Assembly: GCA_977020255.1 (NCBI GenBank)
Contig: CDROCS010003826.1
Span: 1 to 64,000, forward strand
Source of the DNA: Obrimoposthia wandeli
Taxonomy: Eukaryota
Reading direction: 5' to 3'
DNA length: 64,000 bases
Shown piece after piece: positions 1 through 64,000 of the stretch. A model generated the notes under the pieces. The model made no database searches, had not been told where the DNA came from, and saw only the letters and a program-made list of their open reading frames with translations. The translations under genes and the position numbers were made by a program. The stretch's first letter is position 1. The number at the start of each line of letters is the position of its first letter.

Positions 1-231
1 TGGTATCTCAGAAGAGGATCCATTCTAAAATAATAAGGAAAACTGGAATAAAAAATATAAGATACAAATATTTTAAAAAAATAAAACTGATTATTAATTG
101 CCAAATGAAAAAAAAAGAAGTAAAGATGAATAAAACCGATTACAATTTATTACATGCAAAATGAAAGAAAAAAGTTAAAACATAGGAATATGAGCACGAT
201 CAATTTTCCACGTAGGCAACTTTGTTCCCAT

Positions 232-657
232 TTAATCTTTCTTGTAACCATAAAGTCGAATTGTTACAGTCCATTGCTTCTTTTTCGAAAACGCATCAAT
301 ATCAACATATCTTCCATAGTCATCTAGAAATGCTTCATCGGGTCCTCGGATATAAAATTCGTTTTTATTGAAAGTAAAATTCGGAACTGCCTTTTCAATA
401 TTCTGTTTAAGATATTGAAAATCAGGTTTTTGAATACCTGATAGATAGTAGCTGAACTTTCTTCTTTCAATTGTCACAGGATTTACTAAAGCAATCAGTT
501 GAGCCTTCTTCAAGAATATGACTTTGTATTTGAAATATTGTTTCACTTCTTCATACATATTCGTATCCGATTCTTCAAACATTTCTAAATCTTCGTCACC
601 GCTTAATAGCCATTGGCTATCGTCCATCATTGATAATTGTCTGTGATATGAATGCAT
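232..657 (-). CDS. Maverick-encoded protein of unknown function; paralogous to ORF 59173-59451
   Basis: 141-aa ORF inside the element. Aligns by eye with 59173-59451 (LK-Q-I--NPV, P-AF-DD-G, W-V-I--GY). Confidence 0.6.
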   Translation of the reverse strand: MHSYHRQLSMMDDSQWLLSGDEDLEMFEESDTNMYEEVKQYFKYKVIFLKKAQLIALVNPVTIERRKFSYYLSGIQKPDFQYLKQNIEKAVPNFTFNKNEFYIRGPDEAFLDDYGRYVDIDAFSKKKQWTVTIRLYGYKKD

Positions 658-906
658 TTATTGTGATTTGTCCTCCAATGGCGCATTCTTTTATACTAAT
701 TTGTAACAAAGACATGAATCTCATTGGTTAATATAACTAAAGCATTGAATTTGATTGGAATAAATCCATATTAAAAATCAAAATTTATTGGAAGAAATAT
801 ATTATCCAATTATAATAGTTTTGCAAGATAATTACAAGAAATGTGCAATAAAAAAGCAGGTTCAAACTTATATAAAGAAGATTTTACAGAATACAATTTT
901 AGTCTA

Positions 907-1400
907 ATGAAACTCGTAAATATAAATTATAAAGGTAGAATAGAAGATGATGTTTCGTACTTACCATTCAATGAATGGAAGATTTATATAAATATGAGGA
1001 AAGGTTTGACACCTCACAGTTGCTATTTTTCCTACAAATTGTCTTTTTATTTTATATTTATATTGAATTCTTTTAGGAAGTTGTCGTGTTATTGGATGCA
1101 AAATACTTTTGCTTGAGATCGATTTACCATTTAAAATTCGAATCACTGCAATACAGTCAATCACAATTTCGGCTAATCTTGGGAAACAAATAAATCTTTT
1201 TAAAATTGCAAAGAAAATGAAAGAAGAATGCATGTTTGAACTAGAAATTTTTCCTGCTCTCAGTTATTTAAAGTTTAAACTGCTATGTGTAAATATATTT
1301 TCCAGTGGTAAAGTTATGGGATATTGGGATTGAAAAATTTTGATTATCCAGACATTGTTGATTTGATTTTAGAAAATATATCTTATTACATCTTGTTATC
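907..1400 (+). pseudogene. TATA-box-binding-protein (TBP)-like gene inside the Maverick, frameshifted
   Basis: Fragments MKLVNINYKG / TVAIFPT(G)SCRVIGC / IQSITISANLGKQINL / MFELEIFPAL / CVNIFSSGKVM-ILGLK reproduce the two TBP core repeats (TALIFSSGKMVCTGA; YEPELFPGL..LIFVSGKVVLTGAK). Frameshift near 1320. Intron-like spacer at 1038-1076. Confidence 0.75.
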
Positions 1401-1440
1401 TTTCTATAAACAAACCTGCTTAAACTCTATTATTGTTTCA

Positions 1441-1747
1441 ATGAATAATACTATAAATAGAGACAATAGCGGATCGTCTTGTCGACAAAATATTTCTGAA
1501 AATTAGAGGTAAAGAAATTTTATCAGAATTAAAAAGTAATGATATAACAAGAGATAACATTGAAATATTGGTTTGGTCATTATCGTTATTCGAGAATTTA
1601 GAAATCGGAACACAAATAAATAAAATTATAGCTAAATATTCATGAATTAATTTTTGTATTCTACAAATAGCTCTAAACATTTTTACATTTCAATAAGGAA
1701 ACTTCTATGATAATATAAACAATATTAAAAATGAAAGAGTATATGTA
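1441..1747 (+). pseudogene. Decayed ~100-codon Maverick ORF of unknown function
   Basis: Mostly open frame IRGKEILSELKSNDITRDNIEILVWSLSLFENLEIG between the TBP-like gene and the ATPase stub. Contains a stop and frameshifts. Confidence 0.35.
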
Positions 1748-1798
1748 ATGGAGCTAAATAATAATGCTGTATTTCAAATAGTTGGTCACAGTGGAAGT
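1748..1798 (+). pseudogene. 5' stub of Maverick packaging ATPase, truncated within Walker A
   Basis: MELNNNAVFQIVGHSGS then an abrupt switch to another gene. No other ATPase seen in the element. Confidence 0.5.
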
Positions 1799-2000
1799 TT
1801 TGTATAATATAGTTTTGGGTCGAGTAAAAGTTGGAAAACGGAAATATATATTAAAGAAATATAGAAAAACTCTTCTAGATATTACTAATGTAAAAAGTAA
1901 AAAAAGAAACGAAATATTATTCTTAAACAGAATGATGGTTTCATAGGGGCTGTTATTCCAAATGTTACTTCAATTATCAGTAGTATTATAGCTGCGACAC
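1799..2000 (+). pseudogene. 3' half of the small basic Maverick protein with QxGGF-type amphipathic tail
   Basis: RVKVGKRKYILKKYRKTLLDITNVKSKKK..ILKQNDGFIGAVIPNVTSIISS; typical position upstream of the integrase. Confidence 0.6.
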
Positions 2001-2094
2001 GTACATAAACAATTATTTCAAATATCAGCTAAATATATGGGTGCTAACCCTTCTTTACCCAAATTTAAATTTTCTATATATTCAAATTGTTGTA

Positions 2095-3128
2095 ATGGAG
2101 AAGATATGGTTCAATCCAAAAGATCCAATTGGCTACACAGGAGTTTCCAAAAATTAGCAAAAAAGAACAAAACAGAATTACAAGAAAAACACAGAATTGA
2201 CTGAGCGATCAGTTAGCCTTGCCAGTCTGAATAAGCCGATGAGAAGAAGGTTTCCACTCAGAGCTACAAAATAGCGGTCCTCATAATTTATGGCAAATGA
2301 ATTTGATGGAGATGATCCCATATTCTTCCATTAATAAGGGATATCGATATATTTTAACATGTATTGATGTATTTAGCAAAATTGCTCGTGCAATTCCAGT
2401 TAAAGCAAAGTCTTCAATAGCTATGCTTGAAACCATTAAAGAAATATTAAATGAAGACATTCCACAAAATGTGCAAACTGATTTAGGAAAAAAAAATTAT
2501 AATAAGCAAGTTCAATCATTATTTAAACAAAATAATATAAATCACTACTCAGTGTTTTTGCAGTACAAAGCAGCAGTAGTATATGATTTAATCGTACTTT
2601 AAGAGATCGAATAAAAAAGTATTTCACAAAAGAAGGAAATAAAAAATGGATACAAGTTTTTCCTAAAATAATACATGCATATAATCCCTCTGAACATAGA
2701 AGTCTCAAAGGAATGAGAATTGTTGATGTTACTGATAAAATCTCTATGGATATTTGGATAGACAGGAATAAAAAAGAAAATATTAAAAAAGCTAAATATA
2801 AAAAAAACGATTGAGTATCTGAATTTCTAAAATTAGCTCTTACTCCATTTATTAAAGTTTTGATCAGAATTGAAGGATAAAATATTTTGTGTTTATAAAA
2901 TTGTTCAAACGATTAATCAAATAATGTATACTATTAAAGATGCTGGCAATAATCTCGTTCACGGAAAATTTTACGAGCAAGAACTAAAGTAATATCAAAC
3001 AAACCTAGCCTTTTCCGTATTCAAAATATATTAAAATCTAAGGGTACCGGTAAACATAAACAATACTTTGGTAAATGACATGGTTATTCATATCCAACTT
3101 GGATATCAGCATGTAATATAATATGTAG
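2095..3128 (+). pseudogene. Maverick retroviral-like integrase with C-terminal chromodomain
   Basis: WQM(D)LMEM..YILTCIDVFSK, VQTDLGK, (E)RFNRTLR, KFYEQEL, KWHGY motifs; several frameshifts and stops. Confidence 0.93.
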
Positions 3129-3135
3129 TTTGTAT

Positions 3136-4173
3136 ATGGTTTTACCAAGTAACGGATGCCCGAAGACTCAACCAGATAATGACGCTAGTAGCTTTATTAT
3201 CGATTGGGAAAATCCTATAAATCTCCAAGGAGAAGCGGCTTTAACATAATTTTCTTTTTATTATTCTCCAATTACTAACAGAAAAAACTCGCATATTTCG
3301 TTTACAATAGAATTTAATCATGAAAAAACTACTGAAGTAGTGATAGGGTTTGATAGTAAAGGAAATTTCTATTACAATTGTATAGATAAAAAAGTGAAAG
3401 TAATATATAAAAATAACAAAGTCAGATTTAAAAATCGATTAAAATATATTCAACTTATTCAATTAACATTTGAATCTTTAATAGAACCTCTTCAATTCGG
3501 TTTTGGTAGTGAACATGTAGTCGGTATGAAGAGAGATTCATATGTTTTCCATTCAAACTGTTTTAAAATTTTCCTGGTAGTGTAGCAAGAGTGTTGTTAC
3601 TAAACGAGACCAAAGAATGTGTGGAACTGAAAAAAGTTTTCAAAAGATTATAAATAGATAGTGAAGTGAATTTCTGTAAATTAATACAGAAGGAATGTAG
3701 TGGATATTTGAATAAATGTGTAACATTAAAAAAATGGTAAAATAACGTTTACAGTAAAGAGCAATATAAAACGGGTTTCATTTGATGATAAACTCGATAA
3801 AAACCTTGGTTTAAATAGAAATACCTTTGAAACCCATGCAATAAAAACTATAAAAGTTAAAAATAAGGCAAAACGTTTAAATGCTGTTAATCATTTATAT
3901 GCTTATACTAATTTAATAGAACCAACGCTTGTAGGAGGACAGCGAGTTCCAATTTTGAGAACAAAATGGATATCTAAAAATGAAACTACAGATGGGGACG
4001 CTGTCGGTATGTGTATAGATCAACCAATGTATCTTTCCAGTTTTCTTTCTATAAACAATATTGAAGTAAATATTAGAGATGATTCCGGACAACTAATAGA
4101 TTTCACGTACGGGGCCAAGATAAGTTTAACAATACATTTAAGAAAACAAAATGGCGAATCCAGCAATAATTGA
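3136..4173 (+). pseudogene. Maverick minor capsid (penton) protein
   Basis: N-terminus MVLPSNGCPKTQPDNDASSFIIDWENPINL; C-terminus YTNLIEPTLVGGQRVPILR..NIEVNIRDDSGQLIDF..LTIHLRK; disrupted. Confidence 0.85.
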
Positions 4174-7100
4174 AGCTTATAGTCAAAGCCAGCAAGTTAT
4201 AGAATTACCATATTTTGTTGGTAAACAATATGGATCTGGCTGGCTTAGACAGGGCCGTCTTAATATTACGAAGCGCCCAGGGCTACACGCAAATTTTTAA
4301 AAAAAAAAAGGTTGCATATTTATCCGCTCCAGAAAATAATAAGAATTATACCGGAAACATATATCAAAAAAGACTCTTAAACCGAAAAAATATATATGAT
4401 TTAAAATTTTAAATAAAAAGGTTTAAAGTTTTATTTTATTTGTTAAAAACCCAAGTCAACACTTTATTATTTGGGTTTAGAATAGCTATCTATTAAAAAA
4501 TTCTTTCTTCTAAAAGTACTTTTATTTCTAGAGTAAATTTTAAACTACAGGTTTAAAAAAAATGAACTTGGGTTGTTTTTTACTGCTTTGTATCACGGAT
4601 ATCTCTTATCTGAAATGTGAAATATTTATTAAGAAATATACACAAACCTAATATAATAAACAAGAAGTTTAAATAAAAAAACATTATATTAATATTATAT
4701 TTAATTAAACAAAAAACAACATAAAACAAATAGAAATTCATTTTAAAAACAAAATATAACAGAAAAAAACCAAATACAAACTACATTTACATAACAAAAA
4801 AAATAATATTTTCATCTTAAATGTGCTTCTTTCTACATTTCTTTTCTATAGTTTTTAATTATATTTTCTGTATCCAAACTTCCAAAAAAACATGATTCAA
4901 TCGATAGAATACTTAAATTATTTAATTTCTGCTCTCCTATTACTGAACGTAGATAGTTTTTATTCCCTATTCAACGTAGAAAAAAGATCGTTCGCCCTTA
5001 CAATTTGTAACAGCTACACTGATAAAATTCGAGAGCAGTTGTAACATTTGGAAATGTTGGATTCAATACCTGCATCTATAATTGTTTTTAAACATAATTC
5101 AGATTTTGAAATTGTTTCGTCATATTTAAGGTTGATGTGTCTAAAATGTAAAATATTCTCAATAAAATTATCGTCTAAATCTCTTTGAGTATGTGTTAGA
5201 GTACAAAATTGCAGATTGCGATCTAATTGTTTGCTCGTCTACTTTAAATTAGTTAATATTCCAAATTTAGAAAAATATATCGTCATAAGCACATTTTCTT
5301 CTTCCAATTTCAACAAGGAGTTTGTCTATTACATAATACGTTTGTGTACGAATTCAGTATTTTGATCAAATTCTTCGCCATCACCTTCACCAAATTGTCT
5401 TTTCTAGCATTTAATCTCTTTATGTTTATACTCGATAAGATTCCACATAATCCGGCACTTCTTTAATTTTATAATTTTCGAACTCTTCAATGTTGCGTTT
5501 GATTTCATACAGTTCTAGTGCGTTATATAATCCAACAATAGTTTCAATATCAATATTAACTTTTGAAGTGACTTATTAGTTTTGTTGATAGTTTCCAAAA
5601 TATCATTCCAAAAAACAAGCATTAAGGTGGATTCGAGTAGTGCCAATTGGATTTAATATTCCTTTGGCTTCAAATTGCGGTAGTATACTTTTGCGTAGAA
5701 TCTTCTGGAAATATTTTTAACGCATTTTAAAGCACTCGTATCCTATATATATTGCATTAACAGCGTCAGCTCTAAGCCGACCAACGGGTGTCACTGCACT
5801 CTTTTGGAACTTTACATTTTGTTGGTAAATGACTTTTGGAGTAATTGCCATCTATATGCTGAAGCTGAGAAAAATTGTATAATTCCCTGTATCAATAGAA
5901 AAACCTTTGTGGCTTCAATACAACATTCTGCAGCAGATTCTCCTATTAAATTTAGTGAATGAGCTGCACAAGGCACGTAAATAGTTTATTGTTTTTTTTC
6001 TTTTTACACGAGCTTGAAGATTCCGTATATACACCTGACATATTGCTAGCAGTATCATAGACTGCCTCTACAATCATCTAGATTTAATATCAAAATCTTT
6101 CAAAAATATTTATAACAGAATCTTCAATTTCTGAACTTTTGTGGCCTACATTTACAAATAAACGTTAAAACCTTTCTATTTATGATTCCATTGACATTTA
6201 TCTGACTACAATCGAAAGCTGATCGGAATGTGAAATATCAGAGTTGAATCAATTATTACGATCAATACTTAGCCTCTTTTAATTCGGCAATAATAGAACT
6301 TCACGTGATTTCCTAAAAATTTCAATAAATTCGTCGCATATATTTTTTGACAAATATGAAACACTTCCCCGTCCTTTATTGGCAAAATCTAGTAAATGTT
6401 GTTGCAGTAATGGATCAAATTGCCAATAATTCAATGCAACTCTAAATAATTTCCATTATTTCTTTCTCCAATTGTCTCGTTGTCCCTAATGAAAAGCTGT
6501 GACCTCTTGAGCTTAAAAATTTTATGACTTCAACTATTCGAAGCAAAATATTTCTCCAATACCTTATTTCATTTAAAGTCGTATTTTCAAAACTTTTTTA
6601 AAATATTGATGATTGTTTAACCTTGTTAATATGTGTGTGCTAATATTTGATTTATGTGCAGATGAGTTTTCATGATCTGTTATATACTCATTATGTTTCC
6701 AGTCATTAAAACCCGTAGTAAAGAATTACAGATATTACCAAATAATGAGCAAGAAATGCAATAAACTTTTCCTGTTGATTTAGAATATATGTTTAATTTC
6801 TGTTTCTGCCTTTTTACTGTTGGCTAGAATTCGGTAGAATATGGAAATGGTTGCACATCTATTTTGGCCTTTATACGTTACTTTAGAGGCATTAAAAGTT
6901 CAATTTAATAATATCAACATCTGAGATATTAATTATTTCGTTATTTTTTCAGTTAATTCTTCCCATTTAGCTGGATCTTCATAATTCACAAAAATCTATA
7001 GTATCACTTTCACTTCACTACGTTTAGTTCGAGTCGGTAAAACGTCAGGGAGCAAATCTTGTTGCATATCCTCTTGTAGTATTTCTGGATTTTCATGTTC

Positions 7101-8086
7101 GTATTATGATTGTTGACTTCCTGTTGATTTTGAGCTGGATCAGATGAAGTGCTTCCACTTGTTTTTTGTTTGAAAAGCTTGTCAACGGTTGAATTTTTTC
7201 TAACAATGCATTTTCTTTAGCTCTTTTCGTTTAACTTGCGTCTGGCATGACCAGACAATTTTGATTTCCTCATCCATACTTAGTCGTATAAAAAACAAAT
7301 TTAGTAAATATTACTTAGTGCCGTAAAAAGATTTTAAAAATAAGACAAATCATTAACAATCAATACAATTCAAAACTAACCTTTTTATTGTTATTTATTA
7401 TTGTAAAAATTTTTAATCAACAAGTTATAAGTAGAATAATTATGTGCATTAATTTATTCAAACGCAATTTTTAAAAATTAATAAAATAAAATCAATAAGA
7501 GCTGGTGATTTTTTCTAAATACACAAACGTCATAAACAAACACGATAATTTAAAAGCAATTGTCTTCATTTTCCAGCCTTTACTCATTTTTCTTTTGAAT
7601 AAATTTGAAAAGAAAAATAAAGTGTTTTGCAACAGAATTATTTTTTTCTATGATGTCTCATATGTTTTTCAAAATATTTTAATTTTAGTTTTTAATTTTA
7701 TATAAAGGAGCTTTGCTTTTTTGCGTTTGAAATGGCGCCCCTTACATGCTGGCGCCCCAGGGCTTCAGCCCTTTTAGCCCGATGGTTAAGACGGCCCTGG
7801 GCTTAGAACATTAGGTAGATTTGCCTTTCCTCTTTTAAAGAGACTCGGGCGGTTTATATCAAAATTAGGAAAGCATTACCTTTCATCTAAGGACAATAAA
7901 CTAATACCAACTTTTAAGAAGCATGCGCTTGATGAACCTGATAATGTTTTACCTGAAGTTGCAAATTTGATTAGAAAACGAAAATCAAATAAAAGCCAAG
8001 GAGGTAGTGGATTTAAACGTAGAAAGAAACAAAAAATCTATATAAACAAACGTAAGAAAGTTGAAGGAACAATATTTGCAAAATGA
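4151..8086 (+). pseudogene. Maverick basic core-like protein (QxGxG motif), split by a hAT insertion
   Basis: 4151-4249 joined to 7808-8086 gives an open 125-aa ORF (..KQYGSGWLR/TLGRFAFPLLKRLG..QGGSGFKRRKK..). Its stop overlaps the major capsid ATG (ATGA at 8083-8086). Confidence 0.75.
4250..7799 (-). mobile_element. hAT DNA transposon (ZMYM1-like transposase), 3550 bp, decayed
   Basis: 14-bp TIR CAGGGCCGTCTTAA at both ends. 8-bp TSD GGCTTAGA at 4242-4249 and 7800-7807. Broken minus-strand transposase at ~7275-4810 with TTF zinc finger and TNCKGERSFSTL dimerisation motif. Confidence 0.95.
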
Positions 8087-9319
8087 GTTGCGCCAAAACC
8101 GAATTGTGTATTTTTGATAAACCACTTTCACAATTAGTTGTAAATAATGCTTCCTTTGAAGAAATATTTCTAGTTAACTCCAGTTTGCGGTTCAATTTTT
8201 AACTGATTTAGAATTCAATATTAATGGTTCCAATAGCGAGTATTTAGATTTGAATGATACTTTGCTTTATGTTCAATTAAAGTATTAAATGGGGATGGTA
8301 CTAATTTAGATTAAAATGCAGATGTAACACCTGTAAATTATCTCTTTAATTCTTTATTTAGTGATGCCATTGTTACTCTTAATAATGTCAAAATTGAAGG
8401 TGGAAATTCTTCATATGCTCATAAAGCTTTGATTGAAAGTCTTTTGAATTATAGTACTGATACTCAAAATACTAATTTGGCAACCATTGGTTATGTGATA
8501 AACGGTCGCAACTCGCAAAGAATGGATTGTAGGTTCTAAAGCTTTACGAAATGTGTGGGTCTTTGAGATTGAATTTCTTTGAACAAATCGAAATATTTAA
8601 TTCCCGGTGTTAATGTACATCTTCGTTTGTGAAACGTAATAAATGGAATTCTTTTTCTTTGATAAGCAGACGTTCTAAAACCTAGACTCTGATATTTTGG
8701 ATGCAAAATTGTATGTCGAAGAGTTAAAACCGAGCAATCAGTTTTAATGGCACATAATATAGGAATGGAAAAAAACAATGCTTGTTATCCTATTAGAGAA
8801 ACTAAACTTATATCCTACTCTTTAGGTACGGGTACACAAACCTTTAATAAGGATCAAAAGTTTGGTGATGTAAGATTACCAAAATTTGTTTTAATTTATT
8901 TTCAAAAAACTGCAAAGTATCTAAGAAATTATACAACAGATGCAACTCAATTTGACAATCTTAATGTAGGTTCAGTGACACTTTCAAGAAATACTGATTA
9001 TCACGAAACATATAAAACAGATTTCGAAGGTAATGCTTATGCTTTGGCTTATACGCAATATATTATTCGGAATTTTGTCTAACCAGATAAAAATATAAAC
9101 AATGGTATTTCTTTCACTGAGTTTAAAAGCAGCAGCCCCTTCTTCACATTTGTTTTGGCACCAGACTTTGATATAAACCAATGCCAACTACCAAATGATG
9201 GAAATTTACGACTAGAAATTAAGTTCAATGCAGCTTTAACACATCCAACTACGGTGCTTATTTACGGAGTATTTGATTCCGAAATACAAATCAATAAAAA
9301 CAGAACTGTCATATTATAG
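8083..9319 (+). pseudogene. Maverick major capsid protein (double jelly-roll)
   Basis: MSCAKTELCIFDKP start; NYLFNSLFSD, YLIPGVNVHLRL, LPKFVL, C-terminal GNLRLEIKFNAAL..YGVFDSEIQINKNRTV; multiple lesions. Confidence 0.92.
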
Positions 9320-9320
9320 A

Positions 9321-9689
9321 ATGAAGTAAGACATTTTTTAAATTTATATTTATTAATTTTTATTTAGTTCAGCACAAGTTCAAGAATCAGCAGAGAAAGT
9401 CTTGGGTGATAAATTCAATGGAGGTTATCTTATTGATATGATTCCATTTTTTCAATCTGGAGGTTACATTATCAATACTCATACTTCGAATTTACCAGGA
9501 GAACATTGGATAGCTATTTATGTTAGAGAGTGGACAATACATGTATTTGTTCCACTTGCAATGTATTATCCTCACAAACATGTCTCGACTATTCAAAAAG
9601 GAAGAAGAAGAGTATTTTACCTGCGACGAGATACTGTGGACAGTTATGTATTTTATGGTTATCGTTACAAAACGATTAGTGTGTTATAA
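9321..9689 (+). pseudogene. Adenovirus-type cysteine maturation protease with a 42-nt intron (9326-9367)
   Basis: Spliced ATGAA/TTCA gives MNSAQVQESAEKVLGDKF..YIINTHTSNLPGEHWIAIY. The catalytic YCGQLC segment is in a shifted frame. Confidence 0.85.
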
Positions 9690-9919
9690 AAAATAAATAT
9701 TTTTAATGTTTTATTTTGAATTATTTTTTCAAATCCATAAAAAATATAAGGGTAAAATAATAAAAGACATAAGACGAATTTTTTTAATACATTTATTAAA
9801 AACAACATCACAATGAGATCTTTCAGCAAAGATAAGGTCCATCCTAAAAAATGTATTGAAATAACAAAAAGTTAGAGTCAAGGTGCCATAGGGATATAAA
9901 ATTTTAAAAAACTAATTTT

Positions 9920-12900
9920 TTAATTTAAAAAAAAACACGCTCTCATTGAACATGTATTATTAGATGCATGTAAACTGTAGCATTTAGAGCGTAGGAAAAT
10001 ACAATCATCATACGAAACCTGTCCCTCGCTTTCATCCTTAAATTTCCCGATAATATCCTTTAAACTCATAGAATGTAGAGGATGGTTAGCGAGATATTTA
10101 TGGGTATCTAATAAGTTGTCCCTAAACATTACCGGTAATAATTGATTATCTAAACTAACATTCCTACATTTTAAAAAGAAAGAGTCAGTGTCTCCGGCTG
10201 TGATTTTGATCTCACTATTGAATTCTCGTCGATATTTCTCTAATTCTATGTATTGAAGCTCGTACATTCTGAGTTTAGAAATGTCTAAAACCATTTGACC
10301 TATATAACTCGGTCGATCAAGACAAATACTCTGTTTTCCTAATAACACTGCTACCAAGTCATATGCAATAGTAAAACCACGCTTGAAATTGTTCTTGCTA
10401 GTATATGTTATTAGTTTACGCTCATCATTGCAAAACCGTAGACAAATACGTTTCTGCAAGTCCTCTACAGTTTTTCCAAAGAGGCTATTACTTTTTAACT
10501 TGTAAAAATCCCGATCGAATTTGCTAGTGGCCAAATTACGTTTTCTAGAATTCTTCTCAATATAGTCTTTAAACACAAAGTTTTGACTGAAGCTTATAGC
10601 ACGATGAATTCGAGTAACTTTCGCTCCCAACTTTAAGTAGAATTGAAGAACCCGAAAATGCACAACATAATTCAACTTGTCTTCATGGGTTAACAATAAT
10701 TTCTTAACCTTTGAATTAGGTGGGTATTGATGAACAAGTGCTACTGGGAGATCATCTAATTTATCATGCACATTGGAAGGGATTGTTAAGTCAACCTCAA
10801 CCAAATAGCCGATGTCTGATGAAACTGTATCAACAGTAGCCAAATCTGTCATCAACTTATTCAACTCTTCCTCATCATAAACCCACTTAAAGTTGGCATG
10901 AGGTAAAGATTGAGTAAGCGCCCACCCATACAAATTATTAATGTCGATGTACAGAATCTCCGTGGATTGATTTTTGACAACATGATGTTTGTTGACAAAA
11001 GTCATTCCACCGCGTATACCATAATCATACATTTGATACATCGCAGGATCGTGCAGTAACTCGATATTAATATTAAGAGTTTTTATTGTTGTTGCCTATG
11101 AAAGACCAGGTAAACTAAAGAAATGCATGGGATCCAGCCCATCTTCTGCTAAAGATTGTACACGAAAGGACTCAAACACATCAGCTAAAAGATAAATGTA
11201 TAACTTCATATAATAAAGCATATAATCTAGAAGATTTCGACAATAATTATCCTAAAATGTATGGGCCTAATTATAGTCTTGAAGACTTACACCCTCAAAT
11301 TCAGTTATGGGTGGGATTTTTGTGGTATTTTCTAAATCTGCGAAGGTTTTCGCAAATTTATACGGAACAAATCCCCTTATCATAAACCGAAGCTGGAAAC
11401 ACTGACTGTGTAATTGGCCATGCATTAAAATATGCCGTTAAATATTTTAGAGACCCACTCAAAATCTGCAGAGAATATATAAATCTTAAACTGCAGAATT
11501 CAGTATATACAGTTAAAGATAAATATTTTTCTGAAGTTTGAGGTATACATGAAATTTCCCAAGAGCTTAATGTACCCAACGTGTATTTAAGTATATGATG
11601 CAAATCATATCATTTGAGAATATGAAACACGATGGGAATGCGTGATTTTTTAGGGAGACGACGGCCAAGGTTACAGAGGTTGCACGCCGCTCCCAAGTAT
11701 CGCCCCGTAACATGATCGTGATCTCTGACTAACTTAAACTGGGTACCACACAAATAACATAATCTACAAGAATTAAAATTAACCCAGTCTATGCCTATCA
11801 TGATCATTGCTTGATGAGCATTAAGATCATACCACGGTTTGACAATTGTATTTCTTAAATCTTCTAATTTTAACATAAAATCTTAAATACAATTTGGACC
11901 AGAACATTTATAATACTGTGTAATATTGGGGCCTAATAATAGTAGTCCTGTCGAAGCCGGTAGGTGAATACTCTCATACTGGTCGTGCAATGCTAGAATT
12001 GACTCAAAATCAGCATATACCCTGAATTCCACGGGTATGCATTTTTCCCAATCCCCGAATTTTAAATCCCTATCCTGCTATATAGCGTATTGTCATCAGG
12101 ATTCAGTGTACATAATATCATATGTTAGCTGTAAGAGAGCTCGGATCGGAATCCATGCAAACATCTGTGACACCACTTACACCTTATCTTAGCCGGTAAG
12201 GCTCCATTATCTAAATTTAGAAGACGATCTAAACTTGGAATTGCTGCATAATGAAATTTTTTATTTGGTTCGAGCAAAATTAAGTTGACCTGAGTCTCCT
12301 CAATTTTGCTCCTATAAATTACATCTACAAAAGGATTTTTAAAAATTTCTTTATCTGTTACATTAACTGGGATATCAGTATTATATTTGAATACATTAAT
12401 ACTCAAGTTATTAAGGTGTTCAAATCTTGATATCGCAGTTAATTTAACAGGGAAATCTATTCGATGATACTGCAATTCATTTAAAAAAGGGGTATATTTA
12501 CTGACACGCTCTCTATGCTCAGTAATTACATCCCTTTTGAGGATGGCCAACACACTATACAGAAAGCAAAGGTTATCACTGTTTTGTATGTTAACAATGG
12601 AACGTGAAAGTTGAAGAGATCTAGGTGAAGGAATGTATGAACTCCTCAAAAGATATATCATGTCAGTAAACTTTGTTAGAACAAAGCTAACATCGTGAAT
12701 TCTAACTAGAGTCCATCCACTACTTAACTCGCTTTAATTAGCAATTTTTCATCTAGGTTTCTTCCAATTTCAGTTACAAAATTATCATAGAAAACAGTTG
12801 CTTTATGTGAAATTACCCACGTTTTAGACTCCTCATTGACATTTTTTAACTGCACTGTTGCAAAAAATTAAACCTTAGCCAGTCCTAATTTAGTCACTTT

Positions 12901-14110: not shown

Positions 14111-15144
14111 ATAAATACAAATAATTAGTTAGATATAAATTTGTAAATTTTTTCTTATAATCTAAACTCCTAAACGGGTTATCTACATGAAATAGGAAAT
14201 GCACAGGATGAAAAACGTCGCATATATTCATAATACATAGTTTTTTATAATATAATCTTCATTTTTGTTAATGAAAGCCTCAAAATTTATGACATATTCT
14301 TGCATAATTACCCAAATATGTAGCAAATCCCTTTGTTTATAACGAATAAAAAAACCAATTATCAAAAATTTATTAAAATAACAAAGTACTATGATTGTGC
14401 ACGTCCATGGAATCAGTGTTTGATTTATCGATTTGCTGCATTTCCTAAATAGCTCTCTTGATAAACTCGTAATTTACCTGGATGTTATTCCACTTGCGCA
14501 TTCTGTCTTCTCATCGCAACTCGTCTCCTGGTAAGGCATATTCCTGTATGATATGGCCACTTCAGAGACTGCTCTCCAGTCAATCGCAAGTCTCCCGCCT
14601 AAATGGAGTGAAGCTAATGAAGATGAACAAGCACTGGAGGTTTGGGACGAGGACTGCTGTACTTATCTTTGGAATTACATGATCCTGTACCTGAAGATCA
14701 ACGTATACATCCTTTCCTATGTTTTTCCAACATTCCAAAAGAAGGCCATCGCCGAAGATTCACTGGTAAATTTTATTAGTGAATTCAAATTTTAGTAATC
14801 ATTTTCAGTAATCGATTTTCTGTAATATTCTGTAAAACAAATTTAAATCTTTAATCTATTTTTTTCCCAGGATTATCATTCGCGAGCGCTCTCAAGTCTC
14901 TGCTTCCTTCTACTTCATCGCTGCATGAGATCATAGTGAAACTAGTTCAAGATCCAGAGATGTACTCCCTGTTTCGCGAAGGGATCAGAGGAGGAATGAA
15001 AATTTGTCAATAAGCACAAGGTTGATGCAGTGAATGGTTGTGAGCTTTTGTACATTTATGTGAAGAATTTTTATGGGTCGGCCATGTCCCAATATTTACC
15101 TTGTGGTGATTTTAAGTGAGTAACTGACCAGTTAGAGTTATAGG

Positions 15145-15964
15145 CAGTGGTGGGATTCAAACTGTTTAGCAACCGGTTCGCTCATTTACCGGTTGATGTG
15201 GAATTAAATCAATTTTTCCGTGTGTGGTTAATAATAAACAAGTTCAATTAATCATTTTATTTACCATCATATTCCAAATATTTCCAGATTGATAATTCAT
15301 TAGAATTATAAGAACTATTAGATGAATGCTTCACTCTTTTATCATCAGCTGTGTGGTGTTTTCTTAGCCACGTTTTAACAGAATCCATAGAATCCCATAA
15401 ATTAAGAGGAAGACCAATTAACTTTATTACCATAAGATTTGCGACATTTTGAACTTCAAGACGATTCCTTTTATCGCTATATATCACTTTCATAACTGAA
15501 AATCCGCGTTCCGCTTCAGCAGAACTCAAAGCAATTGTATTAATAATATTTTTTGCTTTTTGTATTGTAGAAGGAACATCTTGATTGGGACGGTTTTCTA
15601 TAACATTTTCTACATAGTCACGGAAATCGTTAACGCATATTTTATGGTGAAACTGCTTATAGAATCCGGCTCGGATCTGATTTTTTTATGTTTAAATATT
15701 AATATATTGTAGTTAAATGTTTGCTGAATTTTAATAATAGTTTCGAAATTTTGACTTTCCCATTAATATTAATATAAGAATAAATAAGAATAAATAATGC
15801 GTTCAATCAACGAATTAAAAAATTATATCTTTTTTATCCAGATGATTATGTACGTTTCAGTCGAAGAAGGTAGTCCAGAAACCGGTTCAGGCGGTTCTGC
15901 GAACTTTTATATTTTTAGGAACCGGTTCGCGCGAACCGGTGCGAACCCTTGAATCCCACCACTG
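15145..15964 (-). mobile_element. Non-autonomous hAT deletion derivative (ZNF862/KIAA1586-like transposase C-terminus), 820 bp
   Basis: TIR CAGTGGTGGGATTCAA at both ends. 8-bp TSD GTTATAGG at 15137-15144 and 15965-15972. ORF 15257-15529 has SSAEAERGFS. Confidence 0.93.
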
Positions 15965-18354
15965 GTTATAGGTTAAAATTTTTGAGCTCTCATTTAAGGA
16001 TTTAAGTTGTAGTAACTTTGGTCCTTGGATGGAGGTGGACTTATCTATTCCTAAAGAGTTGCATAATAAACTAGACGATATCCCTTAACCCCGCAAAAGG
16101 AATCCACTATTGGTAGTAAACAACCAAAACTACTTCTGACTCATTACCCTAGCATTATATTTTGCATTTCAGATTGCATCAATTGTACATAAGACTTGGT
16201 ACGAAAGTAGATTATGTACATAGAGCAATACGGTTTGCATAAACTAATGTTTTTGCAAAGTATAATGAGGATAATTAATGAGGAAATTATTAATGAGGAA
16301 TTATTATTGAGAAAAATTATTTCGAGCGGTAATATTATAAATTGAAGTTTAATTCTCTATTTGGTAAGTTAATCAAGAAAGTAGGTACTTTGATGGAGTC
16401 TAGACCACTGGAGGGGTGAGGGGGTCTCCCCTTGTGTGCGCACACCAAGTTAAAGGGTATCACACCATACGGATGTCACACCATAAGGGTGTCACACCAT
16501 AAGAGTATATGTTGCCTCACCATAGGGTGTCTTGCTACACCATAAAGGGTATGGCTCAGAAAGGTTATGAAGGTTTGAAGGTATGCTCGTGACCGTCTAT
16601 GGTCGGCCAACATACCCAAGGGGTTGTGGTCGTTCATAAATCAAAGGGTCGGGCTAAAGACAAAATCAAGTTTTAAATATCAAGGTTTTAGTACATGGTT
16701 GGAATCATCTTTAGAAGACAAATTCATACATATAGGTATGGTCGTCCATAGATGAAGGGAATAAAAATTGGAATTTCGTAGTTTCAAGTACATGGTTGTA
16801 TTTGTCAACATATTACGAGTGTAATCATGTAAAATTTTTATGGTTAAGGGTCAGATTTGGAACAAACATAATAATTTTATTAGATGGTTGTATTTATCTA
16901 TGAAAATTGAGTTCAAATATACCCTTAAGGTCCATGCATACTTTAAAAAGTCGTTGTGAAAAAAAATAAAATTCCTTGTAATTTTAAAAAATAATATATA
17001 TTTTTAAATTTAAATTTGTGACAACTTTTTATGGTTTCTATTGATTTAAATAAACAAATTTTACTTTAACGGGTTTTTTAAAATATTAAAGTAACATTAT
17101 TTAAAATAACTATTAAGGAAAATGTTAATAAACTCAAATTACTTTACTAACAGTATTATTATTATTATTATTTTTTCAAAAATATTTAAATTTACGCAAA
17201 TTTTTATCCATTTTATTAATGAAATAACAATTCCTGGTGGAAAAAATAAAAAATACTTGTAATTTTGTTTTCTTCAAAATAATAATTTAAATTTAAATTT
17301 GAGCTAATTTAATTTGTTAGATATTAATAAAGTTAAACAAATTTTAATTTAACAAGTTTTTAAATAAAATATAAAAGTACCAACACATCTATCAATCAAT
17401 TATTCTTTGTGAAAGTTAACTCTTACCAATTAATGAATGTATTACGTATTAATACACACACTATTCTATATGAAAATTTAGATCCAAGTTTTTCCCAGGC
17501 TTATGCATCTAAAGAATTATGGTAAAATTTCTTTAAATAACTTAAATTATATGTAATGCATACTTTAAGGGATCCTAGTAAAAAATAAAAATACTTTAAA
17601 ATTTAAATTTGTGCCAAATTTTTTATTGTTTTTTTGATTTAATTAAACAAATTTGATTTTAAACATAATGTTAATTATAAAATAATTAATAATTTGATAA
17701 ATATTCATCTTACTGACGATGAAAGAACTTTTACTATTTGAAAGAATACATTTAATAGTACTTTATATTTGAAATTTATATTATATGCAGTGGGCGGAAT
17801 ACAGCTACTAACTTTATAATTAAAATATTTTTATAGTTTAAAAATAAAAGCACTTGATAAAATGCCACAATAATGTGGTAAAGAAATATTATTTACATAT
17901 AAAATGAATTTTTGAAGAAATAATTGAATATTCATATTATATTAATAAAACAATGGCAAAAAAATATCAAGTAATTAAAAAATAAAATTGTTTGTTGAGT
18001 TAATTTACCAAATTTGTATATAAATATATTTTCGAATAGTTAAAAAGAGAAACGAATAATGATAATTTCAATTATATTTACGAATATAATTTTAAAATCA
18101 AGTTATTTAAAAATAAAGAATTTAAATTTCTCTAATTATTTTAAAATATTTCAATTAAGGAATGTTATCAAACGAGATAAGACATTTTAATTATTTAATT
18201 GCATGAGTGTGTATGAAAGGTTAACTTTAACATGGAGGTAAACTATGTGAAAATATGAAAGTTCACATCTTAATTATTATCACTTCATCAGGTTGTTACA
18301 TCATCTTCATTGATTGATAGTATTAATTTAATAATTAGCTAGTACTCACTTGCA

Positions 18355-19907: not shown

Positions 19908-22900
19908 TTTGCTTTATAATTCTTATATTTTTAATATATTCATCATTATTTTAGGCATAAATTACAATCATAAAATAATGCAATTTTAAAATTAATATAT
20001 ATTTAAGATATTTAACTTAGAGTTATAATAATAAATAGGTTTGTATATACATTTGTTTAAATACATCAAAAGTGACAATATAAAATATCGCAGGAATTTA
20101 AAAATATGCTAGAATTTATCATTTTACAGACTTTTATCAAAATTTAAGTTATTAAAATCTAAAGGGGGTGTATAAAGTGTTTAAAGCATAAATTGTAACA
20201 ACAACAAAAGTTCAAGTGAGTTAATATCTTGAATTATTCTATCATTTTAAAATTTGTATTTTAGTAGTTATTAGTTGAACTTGAAGTATTGTTTTTTAAA
20301 TAAATTATTTATATTTAAAAAATATCAAATAGTACTTCTTAATATGAATTTCTTTGCGTTTGAAACTATTTTAGTCATTATTTTAATACAATAATTATAA
20401 ACAAGAAAAACGTGCAATTTTTAAATTTTAATATAATAAATTTGTATTTATTTTCTAAAGTTACAGTCAGATTATAGAATAATGATAATAGGCTGTCGGA
20501 CATACATCAATGGATTCGATAAATAACTTGTGGTAAGATGAATATTTATCAAATTAATAATTATTTTATAATTAACATTATGTTTAAAATCAAATTTGTT
20601 TAATTAAATCAAAGAAACAATAAAATATTTGGCACAAATTTAAATTGTAAAGTATTTTTATTTTTTACTAGGATCCCTTAAAGTATGCATTACATATAAT
20701 TTAAGTTATTTAAAGAAATTTTACCATAATTCTTTAGATGCATAAGCCTGGGAAAAACTTAGATCTAAATTTTCACATAGAATAGTGTGTATTTTAATAC
20801 GTAATACATTCATTAATTGATAAGAGTTAACTTTCACATAGAATAATTGATTGATAGATGTGTTGGTACTTTTATATTTTGTTTAAGGAATTGTTTAATT
20901 ACATTAATAAAATGGATAAAAATTTGCGTAAATTTAAATATTTATGAAAAAATAATAATAATAATACTGTTAGTAAAGTAATTTGAGTTTATTAACATTT
21001 TCCTTAATATTTATTTTTAATAATGTTACTTTAATATTTTAAAAAACCCGTTAAATTAAAATTTGTTTAGTTAAATCAATAGAAACCATAAATATATTAT
21101 TTTTTAAAATTACAAGGAATTTTATTTTTTTTTCACAATGACCTCTTAAAGTATGTATTTTAAAGTAAGGGTATATTTGAACTCAATATTCATAGACAAA
21201 TACAACCATGTAATAAAATTATCATGTTTGTTCTAAATCTGACCCTTAACTTGTGGACGACCATAAAAAATTTACATGATTACACTCGTAATATGTTGAC
21301 AAATACAACCATGTACTTGAAACTATGAAATTTCAAATTTTTTTACCCTTCATCTATGGACGACCATACCTATATGTATGAATTTGTCTTCTAAAGATGA
21401 TTACAACCATGTATTCAAACCTTGACATTTAAAACTGGATTTTGTCTTTAGCCCGACCCTTTGATGTATGGACAACCATACTTTATGGGTGAATTCACCT
21501 TCTAAAGATGATTCCAACCATGTACTAAAACCTTGATATTTAAAACTTAATTTTGTTTTTAGCCCGACCCTTGATTTATGGACGTCCATGACCCTTTAGA
21601 TGTGATGGCCAACCATAGTTGACCTCAATTATACCTTCAAACATTCAAGTCAAAACTGACCACGACCCTTTCATCTATGGTCGGTCACAACCCTTTAGAT
21701 GTGTTGGTCAACTATAGATGGTCATGGTCATACCTTCAAACCTTCAAGTCCAATCTGAGTTCGACCCTTTCACCTATGGACGACCACAACCCCTTGGGTA
21801 TGTTGGCCGACCATAGATGGTCATGACCATACCTTTAAACCTTCAAGTCAAAACTGATCCCGACCCTTTGATTTATGGACGACCACAACCCCTTGGGTAT
21901 GTTGGCCGACCATAGACGGTCACGAGCATATCTTCAAACCTTCATAACCTTTCTGAGCCAGACCCTTTATGGTGTGGCAAGACACCCCTATGGTGAGGCA
22001 ACATATACCCTTATGGTGTGACATCCCTATGGTGTGACACCCTTTAACTTGGTGTGCGCTCACAAGGGGGGACCCCCCAGTTGTCTAGACTCCATCAAAG
22101 TACTTACTCAAGAATTTAATGAAGATAATTAACCTCCGTATTTGTAATACGCCACAAAAGCTTGTTACCTAGTGTAGTAAGGCCCAATTCCGTAGGACGA
22201 TGGAAATCGACACTAACGTAATAGCTATTTTACTAAATATGCAAACTTTCGTTTTAGATCGTCCTAGTTATATTGGTCAGGCAGTTCGGGATTAAGGTAA
22301 TTTAAGGATGTATGAGCTTCAATATGTTCAATTAGAGAATTATAGATGTCAGTTTAATTGTGACATTCAAATAATTGCTGGTTAAACTGATAGCTTTTTT
22401 CTAAAGTGTGATAATGTAGATGTGCAAGCTACACTGCTGTCAGCAATGATTTCGGATGAGTTATTTGACATATCGAAATTCCCTATAAACCATCCTTTAT
22501 TTACTTTAGTCAATACTGCAATAGGAAAGTTTAAGAATGAGAGAAAGCGTGTCTGTAGATATAAGCAATGGGTATTTTATAAACCAAATCATAAAGCTTA
22601 GAAACTATAGAAGGAAAGTCCCAGATGAGAGTAAAAGAAATTAGCCTTAAGCAGACTGCGCTACACCATACAAATTATGTAGCTGCATATAAGAGTTAGT
22701 TAACAAGTGCTACAACAACGCATTAATTAAATAAATCACCACCTATATACCGTTAATATGAGTAAAATCGCATTGAGTAGCAACGACGATAACAGAAAAT
22801 GGGTAGAGAAAAACCGGTCAGTTGCCTACACACAGCACTGATATCTTAAAGTTTTTTTACTTGAATGATTGTTTTTGTATGTTTAAATTTATGTCACAAA

Positions 22901-58715: not shown

Positions 58716-58785
58716 AGTAGGTGGATGTGTCCGGTCTAATCCACCCATACCTCTACCGCGGGGGTCTACCACTGTTCTTTAAAAC

Positions 58786-58867
58786 CGTGCATGTGTGTGG
58801 AGTGAAATTTCGTGCATGTGTGTGGAGTGAAATTTCATGCATGTGTATGTGGAGTGAAATTTCGTGC
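58786..58867. repeat. 25-bp tandem repeat x3 in the Maverick subterminal region
   Basis: CGTGCATGTGTGTGGAGTGAAATTT at 58786 and 58811, with a 27-bp variant at 58836. Confidence 0.93.
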
Positions 58868-59172
58868 CCTCCACATTTAAAAAATTTTTACCGCTAATCT
58901 CAAAGGTGATTAGATCAGACCACGGGAATTTATATTGACCCCAGTGGCTTATTGCAGACGAGATTTCAAATAATATGTTTATGTGAATATATAACTACTA
59001 TTTTTAAGAAAGATTTTAGATTACTACATGTTTTTTTAAAATATCTTGGTCAGTTTTATAGGAGAAAAAATAGGTCAGATCTATATAATTTAGAGGAGAA
59101 AAACAAAATACGAGTCAAAATTCTTTTCAAAACATTTATTAAATCAAACATCAAACACCATATTGACTTCAC

Positions 59173-59451
59173 TCAAAGTCCAAGAGACTGCATTTTCCAG
59201 TCATCAGCAAAATATCCATTGAAATGTATTGAGACATTCCATAATTCTTCATCTAAAATTGGAGCAATCAAATATCCTAGATCATCTCTAAAAGCTAGAC
59301 TCGGATCAGTTTCAAGCTGGAAATAATTTCCTTCATATACATAATCAGGAATGTAAAATCCCAAAATATCTTTCAATTGATCAATATCAGATGTTGTTAA
59401 AATTTCGATGAGATATTTATTCTCCACTTTTGATAATTTCACAGGATTCAT
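59173..59451 (-). pseudogene. Maverick unknown gene, paralogue of 232-657
   Basis: Frame extends upstream (ILKRHQIIQVMNPV); the likely start MDPLLRY near 59555 is also seen at the window start. Confidence 0.6.
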
Positions 59452-59615
59452 AACTTGTATAATTTGATGCCTCTTTAATATATTACAAAGTTTTCCATTT
59501 GAAATTCTTTCTGGAAAAATAAAAATTTCCTACATATCTCAGAAGAGGATCCATTCTAAAATAAGGAAACTGATTAAAAAACAATGTTTATAAAAAATAC
59601 ATATAAGATACAAAT

Positions 59616-62905: not shown

Positions 62906-64000
62906 TTATACAACATCGTCCGGGTATAAAAAGTGACCATAGGCAACTGATCGGTTTTTCTCCACCCACTTGCGTTTATCATCGCTACTGCTTAAGGTAA
63001 TTTTACTTAACCTTACAGTAAAAAGTTGATGATTTAGCGAGCTTATACGTTGTTGTTGTACACGCTCACTAACGCCACTCTCATATACGGCTAAGTAATT
63101 AGAGTGCCTAATACTTGTCTGTCGGAGACTAATACCTTTTGCTCTCATCTGATATTCACCTTCTGTAGTCTCTAGGCTATATGATTTTGGACGTAGAAAA
63201 ATCCCTTGCCTATAGCTAAATAATCCCTTGCTCTCATCTTTAAATTTTTCTATCGCTGTATTAAGCGTCGTATAAAGCGGATGGGTTTTTGGAAATTTCG
63301 AGGTATCCAACAGCCCATCAGCAATCATTGCGGGTAACAGTGATTCGTGAACATTTACATTATTACATTTCAAGAAAAAGCTATCAGTGTCACCCACTAT
63401 AATTCTAATGTCACAGTTAAATTGAACTCAATATTTCTCCAACTGCTCGATATTTCTCCAACTGCTCGATATTTCTCCATTGTAGGTCATACATACGAAG
63501 TTTGCTTAAATCTAATACTGCCTGGCCCATATAACTAGGACGATCCAAAACAATATTTTCCTTATCCAGTAGAACTGCAATAAGGTCCGTATCGATTTCG
63601 ATTGTCCTACGAAAGTGGGCTTTACTGCAATAGGTAACCAGCTTCTGTGGAGTATTACAAATCCGGAGGTTAATTCTTTTCATCAGATTCTCAATGAGTT
63701 TTTCAAATAAAGAATTCACCTTCAGTTTGTAGTAATCCCGCTCGAAATCTGTTGTAGCCGCAGCTCTTTTGAGAGAATTATCCTCAATATATTTTGAAAA
63801 AACATTAGTTTGTTCAAACTGTATTGCTCTGTATACAAAATCTACCTTAGCACCAAGTCTAACGTACATTTGTAGCAATCTAGGGTTTCTTAGGGTAATG
63901 TGTTAATAACAATTTTTCAGTCTTACACCTTGGTGGACGCTGTTTAATTGGAACAAGGGAAGATCATCGAATTTATTATGAAGCTCATTGGGAATGGATA
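62906..64000 (-). pseudogene. pPolB C-terminal region of Maverick C
   Basis: YYKLKVNSLF, DRPSYMGQAVLDLSK, GDTDSFF, KFKDE, RAKG. A 19-bp duplication near 63440-63480 shifts the frame. Confidence 0.93.

Follow-up and report, generated by a model that had tools for sequence, protein, structure and literature searches.

A compact TBP-like gene in Polinton families and the TATAAAC word before their virion genes

Near the left end of the window, as we call the whole 64,000-nucleotide stretch of DNA analysed here, a short TBP-like gene lies among the genes of a Maverick/Polinton element. The locus raises the questions of whether the likeness to TBP is genuine, where such a gene came from and what it could do for the element that carries it. 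The window begins at base 1 of contig G000:C3826, in an AT-rich eukaryotic assembly of 1.35 Gb.

The TBP-like gene and its predicted intron

The homology to TBP is real and can be seen without any repair of the reading frame. The unrepaired frame at 1067-1330 matches the Pfam TBP family (PF00352) with E=7.1e-9, and a frameshift artefact as the source of the likeness was rejected. An earlier note on this DNA, which had found the homology after correcting frameshifts, was right about the relationship and wrong about the need for repair. The profile search that it had proposed as a check gave scores over the curated cut-off of 22.9 (35.8 bits for the unrepaired frame, and 41 bits), with the matched part being the C-lobe only; for the N-terminal frame of the window (907-1113) the Pfam search gave no match. 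The motifs that had been quoted for TBP sit, in a three-frame translation of 907-1410, in different frames or on the flanks of a spacer. Both exons of the window copy carry frameshifts, its 5' splice site is non-canonical, and the copy is dead. The coding length is 153 amino acids (154 codons with the stop), in agreement with the compact protein of about 150 residues that had been proposed, and the gene ends at 1409 and not at 1400 as first given.

The spacer between the two exons behaves as a phase-1 spliceosomal intron, the splicing being a prediction from the sequence. Across 30 copies, the window included, it ends in AG in all 30 and starts with GT in 25; it is 39 nt long in 23 copies, 40 nt in five, and 38 and 34 nt in one each, and 29 of the 30 have an in-frame stop inside it. 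One natural copy translates through the spacer, giving a 13-residue insert that is absent from all 22 relatives that cover the site (23 database relatives were aligned). It is because of the GT-AG ends, the in-frame stops and the absence from relatives that we read the spacer as a spliceosomal intron, and its earlier description as intron-like has held up to that extent. At the same site the gene is contiguous by pattern in 37 of 40 metagenome loci, by reading in one and by a single-piece match in another, and one locus is partial. Within the genome studied here, four Polinton families (A, B, E and F) have the intron at the same codon with differing sequences and a fifth, family D, is intronless; in the five frames of host TBP paralogues that were checked, no intron is found at this site. 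An intron common to four families at one codon and missing in the fifth marks descent within this host lineage, and an intron of spliceosomal type would indicate expression by nuclear Pol II, not in a cytoplasmic virus factory.

The Polinton element, its families and its relatives

The element is confirmed as a Polinton that has multiplied in this genome, and the earlier placing of the TBP-like gene within a Polinton gene array stands, with matches to pPolB, integrase, ATPase and protease (Table 1). In sister copies two small leftward genes are followed by the TBP-like gene, orfX, the ATPase, a small basic gene, the chromodomain integrase, the putative minor capsid gene, the core-like gene, the major capsid gene and the protease, with pPolB on the opposite strand. 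A check of synteny, which had been suggested, thus finds the TBP-like gene with orfX, ATPase and integrase. The window copy belongs to family A; its left end is cut by the contig start, and about 0.9 kb is deleted near 1792-1798, with most of the ATPase gone. Pox_A32 was matched on a sister copy (E=9e-7), Adeno_PX on a relative (E=0.005) and DNA_pol_B_2 on a family A sister copy (E=7.8e-7, over the cut-off). The minor capsid label is one that we assume from position and general features of the family, and the core-like gene is presumably pVII-like. For the major capsid protein there are 320 relatives, with no informative names among the 120 matches listed. Similarity to the sister copies continues past pPolB to about position 14390.

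Table 1. Features of the Polinton copy at the left end of the window (window coordinates).
Feature	Position	Strand	Remarks
Neighbour gene	232..657	-	Divergent; a homologue adjoins the TBP-like gene in 13/40 metagenome loci
Host-type bidirectional promoter region	658..906	.	Between neighbour gene and TBP-like gene
TATAAAAG	688-695	-	38 nt before neighbour gene ATG
ATTGG/CCAAT	723-727 and 754-758		Within promoter region 658..906
TATATAAA	869-876		38 nt before TBP-like ATG
TBP-like exon 1	907..1037	+	Reduced N-lobe strands; frameshifted in window copy
Predicted phase-1 spliceosomal intron, 39 nt	1038..1076	+	5' splice site non-canonical in window copy
TBP-like exon 2	1077..1409	+	Last N-lobe strand and complete C-lobe with TFIIB stirrup; frameshifted
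TATAAAC box	1405..1411	+	Overlaps TBP-like stop codon; 36 nt before next ATG (1441)
orfX, small ORF, broken	1441..1707	+	
TATAAAC box	1714..1720	+	Upstream of packaging ATPase
A32-like packaging ATPase start and small basic (adenovirus mu/X-like) gene, remnants	1718..1922	+	
Retroviral-type integrase with chromodomain, frameshifted	2110..3123	+	rve E=5.1e-8 in window; rve and Chromo on sister copy
Putative minor capsid protein	3127..4173	+	No Pfam match; TATAAAC at 4050 for next gene
Small basic core-protein-like gene	4142..8083	+	Split by insert 4250-7799; TATAAAC at 8041 for capsid gene
Putative major capsid protein (double jelly roll), broken	8065..9316	+	DJR-like_dom E=0.002, below cut-off
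Adenain-like cysteine protease, broken	9357..9686	+	Peptidase_C5 E=1.1e-7 on relative L065
Protein-primed DNA polymerase B, broken	9938..12867	-	Part matched by tblastn

The neighbour gene gave nothing meaningful in Pfam, PHROGs and PDB profile searches. Atlas structure rows with TM 0.38-0.52, under the naming bar, are a weak lead that it may encode a single-stranded-DNA-binding protein (SSB). By eye, the putative SSB genes of L051, L054, L055 and L069 contain GT-AG intron-like stretches directly ahead of the conserved part; the TBP-like genes of the same contigs are intronless. The insert in the core-like gene is a DNA transposon 3.55 kb long; its terminal inverted repeats measure 14 bp and the target duplication 8 bp, and we take it to be hAT-like. 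More Polinton debris lies at 14535-16383, 22104-22835, 58716-59538 and 62930-63998 of the window, where further fragments of pPolB are found, along with part of a terminal repeat bearing the first small gene of family A. On L065 (5843-6352) and in families B and D a conserved small ORF 3' of the protease has an acidic IDFE motif and its own YATAAAC box; it found no Pfam or PHROG match and is presumably DEDD-nuclease-like. The candidate gene orfR1 (L048:9394-9999) was rejected as a family A gene, being part of a neighbouring element of family F. The scan of element ORFs brought up none that resembled TFIIB.

The 30 capsid loci of the genome cluster into five families (A, B, D, E and F), about 64-73% identical in DNA where aligned. 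The TBP-like gene is present in A, in B, in D (3/3 copies fetched), in F (3/3) and in E (1/4, the other three being without that region). A DNA search with the gene gave 4,328 candidates, 40 of which were scored and, the window itself aside, are 91-97% identical. Both exons are free of indels and stops in 16 of 30 copies, the window copy being counted among the 30. Family F has terminal inverted repeats and 6-bp target duplications in all three fetched copies, which are 14.2-15.1 kb long; for family A one pair of terminal inverted repeats was found, with no matching target duplication.

Outside this genome, the TBP-like gene turned up at 40 loci in a metagenome scan, and a profile search gave 64 TBP-like clusters at E<=1e-30, while a scan of IMG/VR found no TBP-like locus. 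At least one Polinton hallmark gene is present on 16 of the 40 metagenome contigs (ATPase on 9, integrase on 6, major capsid on 6, protease on 6, minor capsid on 4 and pPolB on 1), and most of the others are 1-3 kb long. The gene order varies between groups, so that the TBP-like gene has persisted despite rearrangement. A dual-specificity phosphatase gene (L051:3975-4316) and a leucine-rich-repeat gene (L071:1897-3327) are close to TBP-like genes on metagenome contigs. The database proteins P0001-P0170 are known as proteins alone, without genomic context.

With Polintons/Mavericks and adintoviruses the element shares pPolB, an rve integrase with chromodomain, an A32-like ATPase and an adenain-like protease, as well as putative capsid proteins, terminal inverted repeats and the 6-bp target duplication (Starrett et al, 2021, PMC8502044). 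The implication that a TBP gene in such elements is absent from the literature was overstated: the label 'TBP' appears in the legend of Fig. 5 of that paper for polinton-like MELD viruses, and a preprint (10.1101/697771) likewise lists 'TBP' in a figure legend for these viruses. The supplement has no match for TBP in the text searched, and in the text available the gene is known by its label alone, with no element name, family, structure or promoter. The present case differs in that a whole clade has the gene, along with a motif to match and an intron in four of the families. A term search found neither TBP nor TATA in the searched text of Krupovic 2024 (PMC11161782), Jeong 2023 (PMC10748475) and a PLV framework (10.64898/2026.06.19.733378), and the word 'polinton' is absent from the text available of Ravarani et al, 2020 (PMC7221094). 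A literature search, with subscription journals and Repbase outside its scope, returned no reduced Polinton TBP, TATAAAC promoter or this intron in the texts available to it.

Fold, residues and descent of the protein

AlphaFold2 models reached pLDDT 93.1 (natural read-through copy) and 92.5 (an intronless relative). By way of the relative, whose model aligned to TBP over 146/146 residues with Z 13.3 and rmsd 2.6 (the best non-TBP row having Z 6.2), the protein is predicted to have the two-lobed saddle fold of TBP, and the structure prediction that had been suggested as a check came out in favour of homology. The two complete repeats of canonical TBP, with two helices each, are not found. Of the two core repeats said to be encoded, the C-terminal one is complete; the N-terminal one keeps its strands, but both helices and the first Phe are gone. 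The N half of the relative's model has no helix of four or more residues, and in an alignment of 67 compact members to canonical TBP the columns of N-lobe helix 1 and helix 2 are mostly gaps. From the second Phe to the C-lobe stirrup the median distance is 61 (measured in 62 of the 67 compact members) against 72 in full-size TBPs (6 of 11).

Among the same 67 members, four changes are near-invariant in columns that presumably lie on the DNA face in TBP-DNA structures: V to N (96%), T to M (100%), N to S (97%) and L to N (99%). Three of the four DNA-wedging Phe residues, which the earlier note had wanted checked, are kept in 99-100%, and the first is Pro in 97%. The two stirrup Glu residues that bind TFIIB are kept, at the level of sequence, in 99% and 97%. 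In cellular TBP the stirrup Glu contact TFIIB, and helix 2 of the N-lobe binds TFIIA, Mot1/BTAF1, TAF1 and Brf (Ravarani et al, 2020, PMC7221094). Without helix 2 the factor would lack these docking sites, and would in consequence escape host regulation and serve only TFIIB-Pol II. Losing one wedging Phe and two helices could also weaken or abolish DNA bending. With cellular and archaeal TBPs (PF00352; 7egb_P, 2z8u, 1mp9) the protein has in common the saddle fold, a complete C-lobe, three Phe and the TFIIB Glu; it differs from them in its size of about 145-155 residues, the deletion of N-lobe helices 1 and 2, the Phe-to-Pro change, the polar DNA face and its separate branch on the tree.

The earlier note had held that strong divergence argues against recent capture of host TBP, and the phylogeny that it proposed bears this out. 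The tree has 42 rows, all hits to the study's own profile with no named giant-virus TBP among them; it is unrooted, and its bootstrap is not fully settled. In it a 100/100 branch separates the compact and 'less reduced' proteins from all full-size TBPs, the 15 compact proteins are set off together by a 99/99 branch, and three host paralogues fall inside the eukaryote group (100/99). Between families and contigs, pS is 0.59-0.99 and pN 0.28-0.35, with locus L026 as the family A row. It is the tree separation together with the saturated synonymous sites between families that supports, on sequence comparison, the conclusion that the TBP-like gene is not a recent capture from this host. Within family A, variants found in a single copy have a neutral-looking ratio of 0.96, and those in at least four copies a ratio of 0.51 on few sites (8 synonymous, 16 non-synonymous).

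We would give next to no credence to a recently captured and decaying host TBP fragment without a role for the element, to which the broken window copy and the neutral-looking single-copy variants would be suited, since the gene occurs in five families here and in 40 metagenome loci, is set apart from intron-lacking host paralogues by the 100/100 branch and has saturated synonymous sites with pN at about 0.3; recent host capture was rejected on tree and distribution.

The host carries several ordinary TBP paralogues. At least five TBP-family loci were seen, two of them head to head on C238, along with several TFIIB-family loci, TFIIB being in exon pieces; the contigs with TBP- or TFIIB-family loci are G000:C238, C60, C1092, C968, C1245, C1124, C1202 and C3153. 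A 'less reduced' group of 34 proteins (P0078, P0022, P0119, P0128, P0143 and 29 others) still has helix 1 and a short form of helix 2; the Phe-to-Pro change is there already, in 97%, and so is the RxMG strand. The group is possibly an intermediate stage.

Giant viruses (Nucleocytoviricota) likewise encode proteins of TBP fold, the best match to one of these having E=5e-8. As described by Ravarani et al (PMC7221094), N-lobe regulator signatures are not conserved in giant-virus TBPs either; these usually occur with a viral TFIIB and conserve the stirrup Glu to about 40%, whereas here the Glu is conserved to 97-99%.

The TATAAAC word and the role of the gene

In the virion-gene blocks TATAAAC ranks first of all 16,384 7-mers, with 83 occurrences against 12.7 expected and 3 antisense. 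The ranking was made on 13 non-redundant blocks of 60,448 bases, one of them (L189) a partial contig that has no TBP gene; a count on 14 blocks, some of them sister copies, gave 85 sense and 5 antisense against 11.4 expected. In the 13 blocks TATAAAA is not enriched (26 against 38.3 expected), nor are TATAAAT and TATAAAG. All 30 capsid loci have TATAAAC 4-7 times on the capsid strand and 0-1 times on the other, while in the remainder of the window the word is unbiased, at 7 and 7. It precedes ATPase, small basic, integrase, core-like, capsid and other genes, often within the previous ORF. Of 94 sites, 64 have an ATG no more than 130 nt away (against a random mean of 18.2, with a maximum of 31 in 500), and the distances peak at 29-46 nt. 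The other 30 are far from any ATG, one TATAAAC is on the polymerase strand at window position 14341, and several virion ORFs, some of them broken, have no motif within 120 nt. Codon usage as an artefactual source of the word was rejected, since the 51 in-ORF sites exceed the codon shuffle (mean 20.3, max 33 of 1000).

The TBP-like genes are themselves preceded by a different kind of sequence. Of 31 non-redundant metagenome loci, 17 have TATAWAWR upstream (4.1 after shuffling), the upstream regions often have CCAAT and an initiator-like TCATAA, and TATAAAC occurs by eye within 90 nt upstream in 1 of 36. The proposed split between early and late genes is not clean, as the putative SSB gene of family D has both TATAWAWR and YATAAAC. 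The TATA-less TBP-like genes of L076, L078, L079, L081, L082, L084 and L086 share the word TTTGTTTTA, about 30-40 nt before an initiator-like TCATAA or TCATTA. For cellular TBP, position 7 of the TATA consensus is described as A or T, with the second Phe pair entering between positions 7 and 8 (PMC1935006), and C-G pairs within the box are reported to be fitted through Hoogsteen geometry, which avoids a clash (PMC4402545, PMC8643651).

A distant Polinton with a full-size TBP offers a contrast. L191 (positions 1-12715), a near-complete 12.7-kb element, came from an integrase scan of the genome contigs; it lies in a bacterial bin and is probably a contaminant. Its TBP has 185 residues, two lobes and all four Phe, matches Pfam with E=1.3e-36 and is placed by the tree with full-size TBPs. 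TATAAAC occurs in L191 twice in sense and twice in antisense. TATAWAWR stands before 7 of its 15 ORFs and YATAAAC before one; overall TATAWAWR is not enriched in L191 (22 against 32 shuffled). This element with full-size TBP is without the TATAAAC bias, in a contrast that is a single case drawn from sequence. The L191 TBP gene is head to head with a gene having a weak DUF7290 match, and the sole database match of L191 is itself. No TBP-less Polinton was found in viral contigs with TBP, capsid, ATPase and integrase queries, which gave one marginal match (L193), or in the genome itself, where capsid searches gave the five families or, judged by length, family-B-like frames. L189, L190 and L192 are partial contigs without a TBP match, too short to count as TBP-less; TATAAAC occurs three times on L189 and twice on L190.

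Gene, fold, family and motif are each well supported, and it is the link between protein and motif that we infer. Judged from sequence, the reduced TBP probably acts as a late-gene switch, reading TATAAAC and recruiting host TFIIB and Pol II. Nuclear Pol II would transcribe the TBP-like gene early, from a TATA/CCAAT promoter of host type, and the transcript would be spliced in four of the five families here. The intact C-lobe would grip the 5' TATA half of the box, while the rebuilt N-lobe, with Phe changed to Pro and a new Asn and Met on the DNA face, would accept C at position 7, a base that cellular TBP disfavours there. The reduced TBP would then open the TATAAAC promoters of capsid, packaging and integrase genes together with host TFIIB and Pol II. 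The N-lobe presumably meets the 3' end of the box, and the clustering of changes in this lobe fits a shift to C at position 7. Whether the scheme extends to the whole clade as a one-protein early-to-late switch, in which a minimal TBP reads TATAAAC and not TATAAAA, ignores TFIIA, Mot1 and TAF1 and plugs into host TFIIB, seems to us evenly balanced. The earlier note had suggested that host transcription might be either reprogrammed or decoyed; the evidence would favour private reading of TATAAAC promoters over a generic decoy, and the small-virus transcription module that it also suggested is the best reading of the evidence as to a probable function.

A crystal structure (PDB 1qn3) shows cellular TBP bound to the C(-25) variant of the TATA box, which we take to equal TATAAAC, and so the host factor might read the word as well. 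An unlikely alternative is that the viral protein substitutes for host TBP, free of regulation and with no specificity of its own, and boosts every TATA-like promoter of the virus when host TBP is in short supply or blocked, with TATAAAC as a weak box that stays quiet until TBP activity rises. Loss of the regulator helix with the TFIIB stirrup kept would fit this equally well, and L191 illustrates that a Polinton can carry a near-canonical TBP. Against it, polar residues have replaced others on the DNA face almost invariably, and one exact 7-mer has been kept while the capsid genes of the elements have diverged to the identities given above, both of which suggest that the word is read specifically; other weak TATA variants are not enriched.

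We hold it less likely still that the protein is a decoy or shut-off factor, sequestering TFIIB or blocking host TATA promoters, with host TBP or a forkhead protein reading TATAAACA. One of four Phe and the entire convex surface of the N-lobe are lost, as might be expected of a decoy, and the base after the motif is A at 79% of 63 sites, which matches the forkhead site ATAAACA. However, the strict strand bias and the constant spacing from the ATG accord with a core-promoter box, and strong enrichment is confined to the T-led word (TATAAAC 83 against 12.7, AATAAAC 23 against 17.1, GATAAAC 12 against 8.4 and GTAAACA 16 against 9.5); L191, moreover, is without both the reduced TBP and the motif.

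More improbable again is a role outside transcription, in replication, packaging or choice of integration site by bending AT-rich DNA, with TATAAAC as a poly(A) variant or the promoter of a helper giant virus. That the commonest neighbour may be an SSB would suit such a role, and TATAAA is a variant of the polyadenylation signal; 38 of the 51 in-ORF sites are in the last 150 nt of the ORF. These sites precede the stop codon, though, and cleavage there would shorten the message, while the TFIIB-binding Glu is kept and the spliceosomal-type intron points to nuclear Pol II.

Set beside known viral TBPs, a late-gene switch of this kind would share a proposed principle with the TBP mimics of beta- and gammaherpesviruses (KSHV ORF24, EBV BcRF1, HCMV UL87), that of a one-letter TATA variant before late genes. 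ORF24 is described as having a more polar DNA face and reading TATT before late genes (PMC12529657). It is large, acts in a six-factor complex, has four Phe and no TFIIB Glu, and binds Pol II directly, whereas the TBP-like protein is minimal and has retained the stirrup for TFIIB. Nothing was found to suggest descent from the herpesvirus mimics, BcRF1 being a weak fold match only (E=7e-3).

The TBP-like protein amounts to a natural deletion experiment, in which a regulator-binding surface and one wedging Phe have been dropped and the TFIIB contact kept. If C at position 7 is preferred, it would be a compact TBP of altered specificity, useful for the study of transcription mechanism and for orthogonal promoters. 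If the clade-wide switch is true, these Polintons would have a helper-free expression programme reached separately from herpesvirus TATT, and a natural orthogonal pair of TBP and promoter; the full-size TBP of the distant Polinton would then be the ancestral state or a second capture. A self-encoded TBP and its matching word would give a concrete model for the timing of Polinton capsid genes and for their need of a helper virus.
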